A stretch of DNA of 64,000 nucleotides from Candidatus Absconditabacterales bacterium (GCA_041908765.1 JAYREU010000039.1:7618-71617), one strand, 5' to 3'. Shown: positions 2,886 through 45,300, counted from the stretch's first letter. Numbers and translations are program-made. Notes: generated from the letters alone by a model not told the origin.

Positions 2886-3344
2886 TTATGCTTTGGTAAC
2901 TACAATAGGGAGCTCTTGTTCGATAGTTTCAAATTTGAAAGTAGTAGTATACGTACCAAGTGCTTCAATCTTGGCAGCCAAGCTAAAGCATTTCTTGTCC
3001 ACATGGAGATGATGAGCATGCTCGATGTAGTGGACGAGCGTTTTTTCATCAATGCTATCATACAATTTGTGGGTATCTGTAGCTTGTTTTGCAAACGCAA
3101 AGCCACCTTGTGCAGCGAGTGCATCGATGACGGTCTTGATAGCAACGAGGTGCTCTTCTTTTGCTTTTGCTATTTTTTTGAGCTGAGCGCTATGTTGATT
3201 TTTGGCTTGTTTGTCAAAAAATATCCCAATTCCTTGGGGAGCGATTACTTGATTGACATAATGAATTGAGAGATCTACGACATCTCCTGCATTTCCTCTT
3301 GATCAAAGAGATTTGAGTAACAAAACAGGTGCTTTTTTCCCCAT
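2886..3344 (-). CDS. rplI: 50S ribosomal protein L9
   Basis: MGKKAPVLLLKSLGSRGNAGDVVDLSIHYVNQVIAPQGIG... matches the L9 N-terminal signature (GxxGDvv.V..GYarNfLiP). One TGA=Gly falls in the conserved 'LG' position. This gene is missing from the standard-code track. Confidence 0.8.
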
Positions 3345-20415: not shown

Positions 20416-22791
20416 CTACACACTCGTTTCGAGATGTTCTATCAGCAACTCCTGAATATGTTGTCCTAGCTCGTGAGGGGAGTCACAGACTTCACCATAG
20501 CCGAGAGCGTTTGCCTGTGGCTCATCTTGTTTCGCGCCAAAGAGATCAAGGATAGGACTACCGCTCGAGGTGATACCGAGTCCACAGGTGATGATACCGA
20601 GGTCACGGGCTTTTTTGATCTGTTGTTGCATCTTTGTAGCATCATCACTACCTCCATCAGACATGAGGAGGAGGATTTTTTTTCGACGTCAGGATTTGAT
20701 CTGTTCGAGATAGCGGGTGTGCTCCTCAGGAGTATGGTCATGAACAGCTGCATCTTGGAGCTGTTTGGTATACGCTTTCATAGCCACGAAATCGCCCGTA
20801 GATGAGCTGGCGATCTGCAGTTTATGATTTGCGACGAGGAGTTCTTTGGTGGTAAGTTTGGAACTACGCTTTCGTAAGGTGTGTGTTGTTCATCACGAAA
20901 ATAATGATGCTGAACTGAAGATATCTATCCCAGAAATATGTGCATCATCAATCTCTTCTTGCAACCTCGAGAGTGCATAGCCGACGAGAAGGGAGTTGAC
21001 CCTTTGATCATAATTTTTGGTTCATTTGGTCATTGATCAAGACCCATCAGCAATGAGATCAAACTCGAATCCATTGAGTTCTTTTTTTTCTATTTCTCTA
21101 CGTTTATTTTGTTCTCGGATGTGCGGATCGCCGTCTTGATTATCGGTGAAAAGATTTACTATCTCATCGGTATACATAGCACCGTTACTTTTCTCTCGTT
21201 TGACGGGGCCACGATACCCAGGGAGGTGAGTGGCTTTGAGTGTTTGGAGACGACTGAGAATATCTTGCGTGATGAAGTTGAGAATATTACGTCATTCACT
21301 ATCGGTGAGTGCTTCGATAATTGATTTTATCTGTTCTCGATCGTCAAGTTGTTGGAGCAGAAACTCTTTTGTCTTGTCGAACGTTTTGTGCTTGGTGTTG
21401 AAATTTTCGTTCGCCCGATCTACGAGTTCTTCTTTTTTATGCTCGAGGAGGGGATCATCAGCTTTGAGATCAAAGGTTTGGTTGAAGGCTTGTTCGAGTT
21501 TTTGGTCTTTCTCAGTCTGCGGAGTTGCGTTGTGGGTGAGTTGAGCAAGGAGTTGTTTGAGGTCAGAAGGGGTGGGTTGAGATAAATCCCCCGGCTCGTT
21601 TCACTCGCCACCCCCTTTATCAAGGGGGAAACTCTGTGGATCGACGTTGATGCCTGCTTGTTCGAGGAGATGCGGGATGGTGCGAGGGGTGCCGGTGGGA
21701 GCTGCGCCTTCACCTTCATTCTTCGCCTTATCGCTCTCCTTATCCTTTCCTTCAGATTGCTTTCCCGAAGGAGAGGGAGGTTGTTCTGCTTGCCCTTCAT
21801 TATCCTTAGTTTTGGATTCTTGCTTTCACTCAACCGTTCATTCAGCCTTGCCTTGAGTTTGATTTCCATCTTGTGCTCACCCTCACCCCTGCCCTCTCCC
21901 AACCGTTCATTCGGCTTCGCCTCATTCACTAGGAGAGGGAGTATTAGTGGGTTCCTTATCCTTCGCCTTATCATTCTCCTGTTCTTCTAGTTCGAGGTAG
22001 ATGTCAAAGAGCTGAATCATCGCGGGATATCTCATCGGGAGCGTGTTGAGTTGTTTATGCGTTCGTACATCGCTTGCAGATCTGATGAGTAGTTCGTTGT
22101 TGTCGATATAAGATTGTACTTCTTCATCGACGAGAGGTCGTGATCCAGTAGTTTGCCCTTTCAGAATGGCTCGAGCGAACTGCTCGTGGAGAGGATTTTC
22201 TTTTTTGGTGCCGTCTTGGAGGATTGTGTATCTGAGATCTGTCTGTGGAACAGTTCGTTCGAGATAGTTGTCACGCATATAGGGTGCAAGGGTGTTGGTT
22301 TGCTTCATATCTGCTGACCATTTATCTACTCGAATATCTCTGATGATGTTTTCGAAGTGTCTCCACTTTTCACCATAGGTGCGCAGAAGATCTTCTCTTA
22401 GGTGCTGTGTTGTATTTTTGTAGTTCGTAAGTCTGACGGTACGTGGTCTTGGAGTTATTTCGCAGGATGATTGATCTGCCATCAGCTGTCCGTACTCTAC
22501 CATATGTCCGATCTCGTGGACGAGAATTTGTAGGATATGTCATTTCTCGAGAATGAAATTACTTCCTTGTTCTTTGACGAGTTGTGAAATATATTGCGAA
22601 GTGAATTTAGGATTAAAAAAAATCGTACTCTTACCGTGTTGCATTCGTGCGATGTTTTGATTGTTCGTTGCAATCTGAAAAGTGATACCCTTCATCTGGG
22701 TAATGGTGTGCAGAATACTTTGAAACTCACGTTCGAACTCTGTGGTCGTCCGCTCAGAGATATCGAGGTGAGTGGTGGGAGTATTTTTCAT
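20416..22791 (-). CDS. HExxH metallopeptidase-like N-domain plus von Willebrand A (MIDAS) C-domain protein (DUF2201-like architecture)
   Basis: One minus-strand frame is open for 791 codons. HEIGH lies within 22501-22518, followed by a Gly/Glu/Lys-rich linker. The MIDAS motif DGSGSM is at 21034-21048 and the vWA C-terminal part (LLLMSDGGSDD) follows. TAG stop at 20416. Confidence 0.8.
21877..21900 (-). repeat. GC-rich element ('GEGRGEG' family) inside the vWA-protein linker
   Basis: caccctcacccctgccctctccc is the reverse complement of the family consensus. Here it is read in a different frame, as GRGQGGGG, using two TGA codons. Confidence 0.5.
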
Positions 22792-22797
22792 GCAATA

Positions 22798-22826
22798 AGT
22801 ATACTCAAAAGAAGATATATTGTCAA
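22798..22826 (-). promoter_or_regulatory. consensus promoter (TTGACA-17-TATACT), probably giving a leaderless mRNA
   Basis: On the minus strand, ttgaca is at 22826-22821 and tatact at 22803-22798. Only 6 nt separate the -10 hexamer from the ATG at 22791. Confidence 0.6.
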
Positions 22827-22928
22827 TTTTTTTGTGCAGAAGTCAACTACAAGAACTGCCTTCTTTCCTTGCATCTCATTTTATTTTCCCTATTATGAAG
22901 CACGTGAAGAGTTTAGGTGATACTTGTA

Positions 22929-23078
22929 CACCTCTGCAAAAGTCCCAAAAGTGCATATGTACTTTTGAGGACGCCTAAAGAGGTTTCTCAAGAAAGCGTT
23001 GTTAGCTGATCTTCCAGGGCTGTAATACACCTTGTAACGCTAGGAATGTAAAGCAAAGTTTTAATTTTGCAGAGCTTA
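22929..23078 (-). ncRNA. roughly 150-nt structured repeat, copy 1 (candidate ncRNA or MITE)
   Basis: The reverse complement aligns along its whole length with 31133-31283. The terminal inverted repeat is ctctgcaaaa/ttttgcagag and there is an internal hairpin. Confidence 0.5.
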
Positions 23079-23110
23079 CTTACTTTTAATTTGCTAGTTA
23101 CTATTTATCT

Positions 23111-23311
23111 ATGGGACAAACTGAAAAGTCATTGAATAAACGAATTATAGGAGCCATTATTGGATCAGCCCTGATCGGCGTGAGCGGATTGTCGATGACT
23201 CCAAAAGGCCAAAGCTTCTGGAAACGTCTCTTGTTGAGAGTGCGCGGTATATTCCGTTTTTTTAGTGGAGGAGTACAAGAGATGAAAAAACAGATAGAAA
23301 AAGAGAAATAG
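23111..23311 (+). CDS. small hypothetical membrane protein
   Basis: 66 aa with ATG start, TAG stop and one hydrophobic helix. Confidence 0.35.
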   Translation: MGQTEKSLNKRIIGAIIGSALIGVSGLSMTPKGQSFWKRLLLRVRGIFRFFSGGVQEMKKQIEKEK

Positions 23312-29579: not shown

Positions 29580-31130
29580 ATGCACAATTTGGAAAGTATC
29601 GTGGCACGAGCCAAGAGAAGAGGATTTGTCTATCCAGGATCAGATATCTATGGTGGCTTGGCGAATGCACGAGATTATGGTCCGTACGGCAGCCAACTCA
29701 AAAAGAATATAGCCGATCTGCGGTGGAAGACCTTTGTGCAAAGCAGACAGGATATGGTGTGACTCGATGCACAGATTCTCATGCATCCGAGAGTGTGGGA
29801 GACCAGTGGACACGTAGGTGGATTCAATGATCCATTGATTGATTGCAAAAGATGCAAAACGAGAATGAGAGCAGACAAACTTATCGATACACTTATTTTC
29901 CATCATCTCACCAATGAGAAGTGACGAGCAGAGAGAGCAAAAGAAATTGGTAAAGAATCTTTGTCTACCAAGGAACGCGAAAGTATTATCTTACAAATTT
30001 TACATGCGAGAGGTATTCATGTGAACAACCTCATTGCTGATTCACGACCACTCGAACAACAAGAACAGTTTATCAAAACCTATCATATCGAAGACTGGCT
30101 CAAAGACGGCAACCTCAAACACAAAGTCATTGTCTGTCCCAACTGTGGCGCAACTGATTGGTCCGAGGTACGTACGTTTTCTCTCATGTTCTCTACCCAT
30201 CAAGGCGTTATTCAAGATGATGCTAACAAGATCTGGCTCAGACCGGAGACGGCGCAGGGCATGTTTGTCAACTTCAAAAATATTATAGATACGATGAGGG
30301 TGCGTCTCCCATTTGGTATTGGACAGATCGGGAAGGCATTCCGCAATGAGATCACCCCAGGTAATTTCTTATATAGAACGAGAGAATTCGAACAAATGGA
30401 GATTGAATATTTCGTAGCACCTGAAGAGGAGGTTGCCCTCGCATCTATAGAAAAATGGAAACAGGACTCTCGACACTGGTGGACAGAAGTAGTCAAGATC
30501 TCGACAGAAAATTTGAGACGAAGAACACATGAAGCTGATGAGTTATCGCACTATAGTAGAGGTACTTGGGATGTAGAATTTTTATATCCGTGGTGATGGG
30601 GAGAGTTGCAGGGACTAGCCTACAGGACCGACTTTGATCTCAAAGCGCATCAGACAGCATCAGGTAAAGATTTCCAATATCATGATCCAATCTCTGGCAA
30701 AAGATTTGTACCGCATGTCATTGAGCCCTCATTTGGTCTGAGTAGAATGGTTTTGGCGATCATGCTCAACTGCTATGCCGAAGAGACGTACACCGATGGT
30801 CAAGGTAACGAACAAACCAGGACGGTAGTCAAATTCCCCAAGGAAATAGCTCCCGTAAGATGCGCGATCATCCCATTGATCAAAAAAGATCAAGGCATGC
30901 TCGACCTAGCAAGCAAGCTCTATACCGACCTGTCTCAACACTTCCCGTGTGAATACGACGACTCAGGCAATATCGGTAAGTGCTATCGTAGACAAGATGA
31001 GATTGGTACGCCCTTTTGCATCACTATCGACCACCAGTCACTTGCAGATGGTACGGTGACGCTGAGACTGAGAGATGATATGAGTCAGTCGAGAGTTGCA
31101 GGTGAAAATATTATGTCATTGATCTCATAA
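29580..31130 (+). CDS. glyQS: glycine--tRNA ligase (dimeric class II type)
   Basis: [30 protein letters not shown] and FEQMEIEYF. Three track fragments in one frame are joined by TGA=Gly. Confidence 0.9.
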
Positions 31131-31132
31131 GG

Positions 31133-31283
31133 AAGCTCTGAAAAATTGAATTTTTACGTATTTTTCTAGCGTAACTTGTTTTGTCAAACGCCCCGAAAAG
31201 CCAGTTCATAACGCTTCCTTGACGAACCTCTTCAGTCGTCTCTAAAAGTACGCAAGCGAACTTTTAGGACTTTTTCAGAGGTT
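31133..31283 (+). ncRNA. roughly 150-nt structured repeat, copy 2 (candidate ncRNA or MITE)
   Basis: Starts 3 nt after the glyQS stop codon. The closing stem is ctctgaaaaa/tttttcagag and the internal hairpin is ctaaaagt...acttttag. Homologous to the reverse complement of 22929-23078. Confidence 0.5.
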
Positions 31284-31304
31284 CCATAAATTTTATACGC
31301 TTCT

Positions 31305-43875: not shown

Positions 43876-44286
43876 CTATATATTTTCTTTGCGCCAGGGA
43901 GCTCGTTCAATAGTTCTTCAGTTTTCTGCTGGTGAGAAAACTACGCTAAGCCAGGCAGGAGTTGCATAGTGTTCTGTTCGTTTGGGTCGTTCAATAGCCA
44001 CATAAGGGTAATTTTGTATGGGTGATATGAGGTCTAGCGAGAGAAAATCTGCCTCGGTTGCAATTCTCCACATATCAATATGCAGTAATTTTTCGCCGTA
44101 GATGGCGAGATAGGTGTAGGTAGGACTTTGTATATCTTCACGAGGAATATCTAAAAATGTGGCAATACCTTTGACGAAAGTGGTTTTTCCCATACCAAGG
44201 TCACCATTGAGGAGAAAGTGAGTATGGTTTTGTACTAACAGTGATCATAGCTCCTGTACTGAGTTGGCATCGATGAAATGTGGCAT
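43876..44286 (-). CDS. tsaE: tRNA t6A37 biosynthesis ATPase TsaE
   Basis: LNGDLGMGKTTFVKGIA is the P-loop typical of TsaE/YjeE. TGA at 43918 is read through to TAG at 43876. Confidence 0.8.
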
Positions 44287-44403
44287 ATATGAGAAAAAAA
44301 GTGAAAATAGCTTACTCTGTATACATAAATAGAATGAGGATGCAACGCTTGCAAAAGAGCTCAAAAAAGACATAATAATCATCGTTTTATTGTAACCAAG
44401 GGC

Positions 44404-45300
44404 ATGAGAGAGTTTCGACTCATTGATGGGTCAAATATGATTTTCAGAGCATATTACGGGCTACCTGAACTACACAATGATGAATGAGAAAACATCAATG
44501 CTGTATACGGATTTTTTCGTATGTTATTGAGAATGCTCCAAGCGAAACCTGAATATCTTATGATAGCACGAGATAGTCCTGTCAGAACAGTCAGAGCAGA
44601 AATATTTACCGATTACAAAGCCCAAAGAATTTCTATGCCTGACAATTTCTTCTGGCAGATGAATATGATCAAAGAACTTACCGCACAGTTGCACATACCT
44701 GCCGAGGAGATACCTGGGTTTGAGGCTGACGATATTATTTTTTCCTTGGTGCAGCATGCCAAACATCATCAGCATAGCCTGTTATTCAAGATAATTTCCA
44801 GCGACAAAGATCTCAAGCAAATGCTCAGTGATAATGTCATAGCTTTCGATGCTATGAAGCAGAAAATTACCACGTATGAGAGTTTCAAACAAGAGTTTGG
44901 TTTTGTGCCAGAGCGTATAGTTGATTATTTAGCAATAGTGGGAGATGTTTCTGACAATGTCCCAGGTATACAAGGTATTGGCGAGAAATGAGCAAAAGAA
45001 CTAGTCTCTACCCATCAAACGTTAGAGAATATCTATGCGAACTTGGAAGCTATTGCTCCACGTTATCAGCAGAAATTACGTGATGGCAAAGAAGTTGCTT
45101 TTGCAAGTAGGGAATTGATTAGGTTGATTGATATCCCCGCATTGGCACACAAATGAGTAGATGCATTTTTGTACGCACTTGATGGTGCGCATTGGAAGAA
45201 TGTGTTGGTAGAAGGACAATGATTTGCTTCATTGGAGCAGTTGTGTGGAGACTTCAAAATCCATCCGCATGTTGGACAACAGCACTCTTTGTTTTGATAG
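44404..45300 (+). CDS. 5'-3' exonuclease (FEN / Pol I N-terminal domain family)
   Basis: LIDGSNMIFRAYY, GFEADDII, and VGDVSDNVPGIQGIGEKGA (the H3TH motif needs TGA=Gly). Confidence 0.85.

Follow-up and report, generated by a model that had tools for sequence, protein, structure and literature searches.

The roughly 150-nt repeat that occurs twice in the window (the whole 64,000-nt stretch of DNA that was analysed here) is very probably a non-autonomous DNA transposon (MITE). The first-pass annotation of this DNA had left two possibilities, a family of small structured RNAs or a MITE whose terminal inverted repeats (TIRs) are conserved, and the second of these is borne out by copy number, TIRs, target-site duplications (TSDs) and empty orthologous sites. 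The element is small and encodes no ORF of its own, it carries TIRs, it is flanked by a duplication of fixed length, and its copies are dispersed and missing from orthologous sites in a sister species; among the hallmarks of a MITE, only a parent IS is excepted. As a primary identity, the structured RNA has fared poorly: there is no Rfam match, neither orientation nor position is fixed, and the covariation proposed for its closing stem fails.

A repeat family in a TGA-recoded genome

The window's own genome (G000) comprises 1.26 Mb on 78 contigs, is 95% complete and belongs to the Absconditabacterales (SR1-type). Long ORFs appear in the window only when TGA is read as sense. Since TGA is not a stop in this host, every stop codon is TAA or TAG, and gene ends would thereby become natural, harmless targets for TA-centred insertion.

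The reverse complement of copy 1 (about 22926-23080) aligns with 31131-31285 over the full length, with 109 of 148 element positions identical (~74%). This upholds the end-to-end correspondence described at first reading, with refined ends, and every one of the shared blocks listed at that time is found in both window copies. A profile built from the pair and run with nhmmer against the host genome recovered both copies together with ten others, the further copies that had been proposed as a check, at E-values of 1e-21 to 1e-53, so that the similarity of the repeat copies lies far beyond chance. In total, the family has 12 copies on 9 contigs. Ordinary duplicated DNA, produced by segmental duplication or gene conversion and having neither mobility nor function, would explain the existence of two similar stretches and nothing more. 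That explanation is refuted by the dispersal of twelve copies over nine contigs and by their sharp common ends, TIRs, TSDs and empty sites, and we give it practically no weight.

The two copies, their parts and their context in the window are as follows.

22926..23076, minus strand: copy 1 of the MITE, a 151-nt divergent subfamily member (nhmmer E = 7.5e-38)
22921..22925, no strand: left TACTT direct repeat of copy 1 (one TACTT at the unoccupied G001 site, a pair in G000)
23077..23081, no strand: right TACTT direct repeat of copy 1 (from sequence and G001 comparison)
22992..23076, minus strand: copy 1 module A, the 5' hairpin module on that strand (from alignment and RNAalifold)
22988-22991, minus strand: copy 1 inter-module junction, TTGA (from alignment and RNAalifold)
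22926..22987, minus strand: copy 1 module B, the 3' hairpin module on that strand (from alignment, RNAalifold and fold)
31131..31285, plus strand: copy 2 of the MITE, a canonical 155-bp unit, GGAAGCTCTGAAAAA...TTTTTCAGAGGTTCC (E = 3.7e-52)
31127..31130, no strand: left TSD of copy 2, ATAA, containing the TAA stop (31128-31130) of the upstream GlyRS-like gene
31286..31289, no strand: right TSD of copy 2, ATAA (from sequence and G001 comparison)
31131..31218, plus strand: copy 2 module A, an 88-nt GGAAGC...GCTTCC hairpin module
31219..31222, plus strand: copy 2 inter-module junction, TTGA (TTGA or TCGA in all two-module relatives)
31223..31285, plus strand: copy 2 module B, 63 nt, a long hairpin, cGAACCTCT...AGAGGTTCC
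29580..31130, plus strand: context, class II aminoacyl-tRNA synthetase (GlyRS-like) gene with HGTP_anticodon and tRNA-synt_2b domains, TGA being read as sense
22798..22826, minus strand: context outside the element, promoter-like TTGACA-17-TATACT with 11/12 consensus matches

The termini of copy 1 read AAGCTCTGCAAAA... and ...TTTTGCAGAGGTGTAC. Its 5-nt TACTT direct repeat is a target-site duplication, with a true length of 2-5 nt because the boundary can slide. The promoter-like site, ~100 nt downstream from copy 1 in the minus-strand direction, would serve a 791-aa ORF (20416-22791, minus strand). On the other side, an ORF of 66 aa whose N-terminal half is hydrophobic (23111-23311) starts 30 nt from copy 1; several stops follow it before a ClpB-like gene, and its start region is conserved in G001.

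Ends, target duplications and placement

The canonical unit of the family is 155 bp, a length held exactly by four copies in the host genome. Once copies were aligned with their flanks, common sharp ends were apparent, of the form GGAAGCTCTG(N)AAAA ... TTTT(N)CAGAGGTTCC. The TIRs extend over ~15 nt (GGAAGCTCTGAAAAA / GGAACCTCTGAAAAA) and include a fixed mismatch at position 5 (position 5/6 in the curated parse). In that curated parse, every element has 10-11 complementary positions among its outermost 12 nt, and the first 6 nt of each end also match the junction-proximal partner without a mismatch, so the two signals are present together. Across genera, it is the outer TIR that has been conserved, the interiors having diverged.

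Target-site duplications, another check that had been proposed, were found at both window copies, and across the family the TSD is 4 bp, TA-centred and mostly TTAA. Identical 4-nt flanks were present in 23 of 26 elements under a strict parse of six genomes (TTAA 16, TTTA 2, TTAT 2, and one each of ATAA, CTAA and TTAG), the remaining three being one base off. Seven of those 23 are non-palindromic, and because such flanks (ATAA/ATAA, TTAT/TTAT, CTAA/CTAA) repeat directly rather than in inverted form, they represent duplication of the target site.

These duplications weigh on another conceivable origin, in which a hairpin-ended ssDNA element is moved by a Y1/HUH transposase, either as an IS200/IS605-derived PATE or as a REPIN with its RAYT. 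The single hairpin at each end, formed through an internal inverted copy, does superficially resemble the left and right ends of IS200/IS605, and Y1_Tnp (PF01797) matches occur in G121, which is the genome richest in two-module copies. Those matches are the only ones found, with none in G000, G001, G021 or G096. Moreover, IS200/IS605 and REPINs make no target-site duplication, whereas the identical flanks of the 23 elements are single-copy in empty sites; the targets vary (TTAA, ATAA, TTAT, CTAA) instead of being one fixed left-side tetranucleotide; and the outer ends are good inverted repeats (10-11/12). The target duplications largely refute a Y1/HUH origin, and we regard it as very improbable.

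With true start and stop codons taken into account, all 12 copies in the host genome lie between genes. Where a copy seems to run into a long ORF (C48, C33b, C49 and copy 1), the overlap is an upstream extension or a stop-codon target, and in-frame intragenic insertion of the RPE kind, considered for C48, C33b and C49, was rejected on viewing the empty sites. Copies occur in either orientation, among convergent, divergent and tandem gene pairs; 7 of the 12 are no more than 30 nt from a stop codon, and 4 of the 12 have a stop inside the TSD.

No solo modules were found in the host genome. A 91-nt mini-element, GGAACCTCTGCAAAATATCC...GACGAGGTTCC, is located at G000:C6:4707-4797; it has the same terminal core, lacks clean 4-nt duplications and is possibly a decayed single-module relative. 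Separately, two other short repeat families adjoin the copy on contig C68, within its left flank (G000:C68, ~3000-3280). Positions 136-243 and 286-421 of the joined-flank query for this site match many contigs in both G000 and G001, and one of these neighbouring families holds tandem 'GAGTCTGGAATCT'-like units.

Empty sites in a sister species

A sister species of the same genus (G001), whose flanking sequences are about 85-90% identical to those of the host genome, provided the most direct view of mobility. The copy 2 locus reads '...ctcATAA/GGAAGC...GGTTCC/ATAAatttta...' in the host genome (slashes marking the element's boundaries), and at the corresponding site on contig C63 of G001 the flanks are contiguous ('...gatatcATAAattttatt...') with a single copy of the duplicated bases. 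This insertion hit the ATAA in which the GlyRS-like gene has its stop, and that stop is kept intact by the duplication. For copy 1, which targeted a divergent intergenic region, the flanks in G001 (contig C77) are likewise contiguous ('ggtgaTACTTactttt'), and the host genome has 156 extra bases, namely the 151-nt element and a second TACTT. Both window copies are lineage-specific insertions.

Joined-flank queries showed that the C2, C48, C49, C33b, C68 and C33a sites are also without an element in G001. At least 8 of the 12 host copies are missing there, three sites are not scorable and one copy is orthologous in both species. In the other direction, the sites of two G001 copies (L021 and L022) are empty in the host genome. 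Since empty and occupied sites are seen both ways, the element has inserted repeatedly since the two species diverged. An absence in G001 could formally reflect precise excision instead of insertion in the host lineage; the element is mobile either way.

Predicted fold and covariation

At first reading, both window copies were held to fold in the same way, with a closing stem between the termini and a small internal hairpin. A terminal stem and small hairpin are indeed seen in the minimum-energy fold of copy 1 and in the centroid of copy 2 (z = -2.64 and -1.93 against shuffles), but RNAalifold applied to the 12 copies leaves the termini unpaired with one another. Two compensatory changes had also been put forward. 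The one in the closing stem, C/G versus A/T, is real in the two copies but does not extend to the family, where that pair is AU in 4 copies, CG in 1 and unpaired in 7; one position of the stem is G.G in 12/12. The one in the small hairpin, C/G versus T/A, held up and is seen family-wide as UA in 10 copies, CG in 1 and AU in 1. Taken whole, the originally proposed structure is 88.5% paired with 2 double-changed pairs, a number reached by 53/500 shuffles. With its pair open in 7/12 copies and a performance no better than shuffles on robust measures, covariation of the closing stem was rejected as a property of the family.

A different arrangement emerges from RNAalifold on the 12 full-length copies, in which each terminus pairs with an internal inverted copy of itself and two adjacent hairpins result. 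The element accordingly parses into two palindromic modules, GGAAxx...x'x'TTCC - TTGA - GGAAyy...y'y'TTCC, each a hairpin. This fold is 93.8% paired and has 8 double-changed pairs, a U-A / U-G / C-G series included, as compared with a shuffle mean of 2.4 (0/500 shuffles reach 8) and 0-4 in slid controls; the structure was derived from the alignment on which it was tested, that alignment includes a pair of orthologues, and the outermost stems consist of inverted copies of transposon termini. As modelled, the two-hairpin, two-module fold fits the family better than a terminus-to-terminus stem.

Possible constraint on inserted copies

Apart from mobility, there are hints that some copies are under selection. 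The only MITE copy common to the host genome and G001 (G000:C21:46334-46488, locus L006/L047, outside the window) is identical between the species at 151/155 positions (97.4%). Identity falls to 90% in the surrounding 2.4 kb and to 80.7% at the third codon positions of the neighbouring gene. This copy forms the entire spacer between two co-directional genes, with the upstream stop in its left TSD, the downstream ATG 4 nt past its right end and its terminal AAAGG in Shine-Dalgarno position. From this layout and its conservation, the copy appears to be under constraint and to supply a Shine-Dalgarno-like AAAGG. The compensatory changes and the conserved shared copy together suggest that some copies became constrained after insertion; the shared copy is one locus, and recombination could mimic constraint there. 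Some copies are probably co-transcribed with their neighbours, and a constraint at the level of RNA or of a DNA hairpin, acting on top of mobility, is possible.

It might be argued from the same data that the repeats are first of all RNA, either small structured RNA genes or cis-acting RNA elements, conserved for a fold that would work, for instance, as a 3'-UTR stabiliser, a processing site or an sRNA, and present in many copies because several operons use it. The window copies fold somewhat better than shuffles by the z-scores above, the two-hairpin consensus (94% paired) has its double-changed pairs, and the shared copy exceeds neighbouring third codon positions in conservation. Copy 2 sits between a stop codon and a possible terminator and would thus be co-transcribed, and the analogous bcr1 repeat is transcribed (PMC3184786). 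Against this, no promoter or terminator belonging to the element was called, with no forward-strand promoter within it, and copies lie in both orientations and in convergent, divergent and tandem contexts. The absence of at least 8 of 12 copies from the sister species, at sites marked by target duplications, is unlike a gene family, and the fold was tested on the alignment from which it came. Much of the apparent structure is explained by origin, since the hairpins are largely inverted copies of transposon ends. Searches of the whole window against Rfam gave no match at gathering thresholds and only noise (E >= 1) at permissive ones, and a tRNA/tmRNA scan found nothing. An RNA as the primary identity of these repeats is accordingly unlikely, and we continue to treat them as a MITE.

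Relatives in other genomes

A covariance model built from the 12 copies was run against 140 genomes belonging to the host's own GTDB family and recovered the element in G000, G001 and four genomes of three other genera (G121; G021; G096 with G005). A pattern scan of all GTDB species representatives returned the same genomes and two evident chance matches. Two of the matching genomes, G001 (CAZWFZ01) and G096 (CAYLWY01), carry the public label 'uncultured Candidatus Peribacteria'. These labels are probably wrong, because the GTDB family is that of Absconditabacterales/SR1 genomes (for G001, the same genus) and because the MITE is shared.

Copy numbers are 5-7 in G001 and about 22 in G121. The interiors of relatives from other genera cannot be aligned with the window element, and what is held in common is the plan: TSD, GGAAxx...x'x'TTCC, TTGA or TCGA, GGAAyy...y'y'TTCC, TSD. 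The dinucleotides xx/yy are GC/CC, CC/GG or AC/CC and are complementary within each module. In G121 (CALGNI01; L066, L069, L070, L072, L077, L097 etc.), the same 'B' module is found linked through TCGA to two or more alternative partner modules. One of those partners carries an extra insert of about 43 nt, so that variants of 160 nt and 203 nt occur, each flanked by TTAA-type duplications.

In the wider class, the covariance model gave one match, in G172, a genome of another family. The matching element is a single module of ~101 nt with the same termini and TTAA/TTAA flanks. In this closed genome (1,006,762 bp), the terminal consensus occurs 154 times, versus 0-4 for the control, and at least 50 complete single-module elements were parsed, with a mode of 99 nt and the consensus GGAAgCTCTGAaAAAc...gTTTCTCAGAGcTTCC. 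Flanks are identical in 28 of 50 elements, in 25 of them as TTAA/TTAA, and the median pairwise identity of 71% among the elements indicates that they are old. Given that a single-module form exists with the same termini and the same TTAA duplication, the window element looks like a head-to-tail dimer of such units. A tandem array at G172:C1:492000-503600 consists of six units of about 1.8 kb, each having a 460-600-aa ORF and a decayed MITE in the spacer; the MITEs of this array are amplified passively along with the gene family.

The search for a transposase

As for how the element moves, a DDE transposase acting in trans would make 4-bp staggered cuts at the target and transfer the element by cut-and-paste, with the two-module element travelling as one through its outer ends. 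An enzyme of the IS5 group would be the most likely, because IS5 has GGAAGG...CCTTCC ends and duplicates Py-T-A-Pu, including TTAA, CTAA and TTAG (PMC5493358). The IS5A copy of E. coli K-12 opens with GGAAGGTGCGAA... and closes with ...TTCGCACCTTCC; the MITE termini, GGAA(G/C/A)(G/C) and complement, follow IS5A in the outermost bases and are unrelated to E. coli IS5 beyond the first 4-6. Both elements make a 4-bp, TA-centred duplication, and the large majority of MITE targets (TTAA, CTAA, TTAG) fit Py-T-A-Pu. Counting against an IS5 relationship, TSDs of ATAA, TTAT and TTTA are off Py-T-A-Pu by one base. The unusual termini of copy 1 and its flanking repeat of 5 nt count against the MITE reading as a whole. 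Were the transposase of the IS5-group type, it would act on GGAANCTCTGAAAAA ends. Since no partner was found, the assignment to the IS5 group stands at about an even chance.

Transposase profiles (PF01609, PF13586, PF05598, PF13359, PF13546 and PF01797) were run across the host genome and its relatives. The host genome has no match to DDE_Tnp_1, DUF772, DDE_Tnp_1_2, DDE_Tnp_4, DDE_5 or Y1_Tnp (Pfam), and G172 has no match to DDE_Tnp_1 despite at least 50 copies in a closed genome. In G000, G021, G096 and G172, no IS5-type transposase gene (DUF772 + DDE_Tnp_1) bounded by such ends turned up. When an autonomous partner was sought in the host genome through its termini, the search returned the one 91-nt mini-element on C6 and no IS, and a metagenome scan with the left-end 21-mer gave five chance matches only.

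Several candidates were set aside. The IS5-type or IS1182-type genes of G001, G005 and G121 sit on short contigs, and the transposases at G001:C181, G005:C216, G121:C41 and G121:C13 have ends that do not match or are not traceable; the TIR of the G121:C41 transposase, for example, is GAGGCTGTCTCAAAA, unlike the MITE ends. G121:C4 looks like a GC-rich contaminant. The 1708-bp contig G005:C216 (L060) encodes a 335-aa IS5-group-type transposase (DUF772 + DDE_Tnp_1) with no in-frame TGA codon in a host genome where TGA is sense, and this gene may be a recent arrival or the contig mis-binned. In G172, pairs of termini at IS-like distances enclose ordinary ORFs, including a 322-aa ORF without a transposase domain, and the 1.8-kb repeat proved to be the family of tandem genes whose spacers carry decayed MITEs. 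The only true IS found in that genome is IS256-like, has an 8-bp TSD and is unrelated to the MITE. It is present as three 100%-identical 1302-bp copies (G172:C1:23477-24778, 43935-45237 and 474178-475480) with an 8-bp duplication, CTCAGAGT, and its mutator-type transposase is frameshifted.

MAGs are often without IS copies, and orphan MITEs are common; the partner gene probably lies outside the assemblies. A more far-reaching proposal begins from the closed 1-Mb genome, in which no transposase is detectable even with at least 50 copies present, so that the enzyme might be one that current profiles do not recognise. On that proposal, the repeats would form an orphan MITE superfamily with GGAANCTCTGARAAA ends and a TTAA-type 4-bp duplication, spread over several TGA-recoded families of the Absconditabacteria type and moved by a transposase missed by current profiles. 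The superfamily would prefer the tetranucleotides of stop codons (TTAA, CTAA, TTAG), its hairpins would be selected as RNA elements (3'-UTR hairpins and RBS-supplying intercistronic spacers), and it would be routinely domesticated at the gene ends of minimal genomes. We consider this proposal speculative and rather doubtful as a whole.

Comparison with known mobile elements

The element described here adds a new family to a kind that is already well known, and nothing in it is conceptually new. Prokaryotic MITEs are about 100-200 bp in length, have a short TSD, occur in tens of intergenic copies and differ in presence or absence among close relatives; their transcripts form hairpins, and they have occasional effects on neighbouring genes. 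Like Correia/NEMIS of Neisseria, RUP of Streptococcus pneumoniae and ERIC/YPAL of enterobacteria, the window element is small, non-coding and bounded by TIRs. It differs from Correia and RUP, whose TSD is the TA dinucleotide, in its 4-bp TSD around TA (TTAA), and from such MITEs in general in its two modules and in its TGA-recoded SR1-type host of about 1.2 Mb. Rickettsia palindromic elements (RPEs) are also palindromic mobile repeats that proliferate in a reduced genome; RPEs are often found in frame inside genes, whereas all 12 copies of the window family are intergenic. No sequence similarity was found in Rfam or in plasmid or phage collections, and our literature search found no report of a MITE in Absconditabacteria, Gracilibacteria or CPR genomes.

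Recognition of the repeat as mobile DNA and not an RNA gene avoids its annotation as a novel sRNA. It also documents miniature transposons that have been active since a split between sister species in an ultra-small, TGA-recoded genome of the episymbiont type. The two-module architecture and the stop-codon-friendly target are minor points of interest, the latter in that a TA-centred 4-bp target lets insertions sit on TAA and TAG stops without destroying them. In practical terms, the presence or absence of insertions can be used for strain typing in metagenomes, and the defined terminal sequence can serve as bait for the missing transposase. The hints of constraint make the family a reasonable candidate for studying the domestication of MITEs.

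The closest functional analogue is bcr1 (group A repeats) of the Bacillus cereus group, which is also about 155 bp, non-autonomous, flanked by short direct repeats and variable among close strains (PMC3184786). Two independent stem-loops kept by compensatory changes are predicted for bcr1, its transposase has not been identified and it is transcribed (PMC3184786). The direct repeats of bcr1 are 5 bp, as against the 4-bp TSD of the MITE, and the likeness between the two is one of architecture only.
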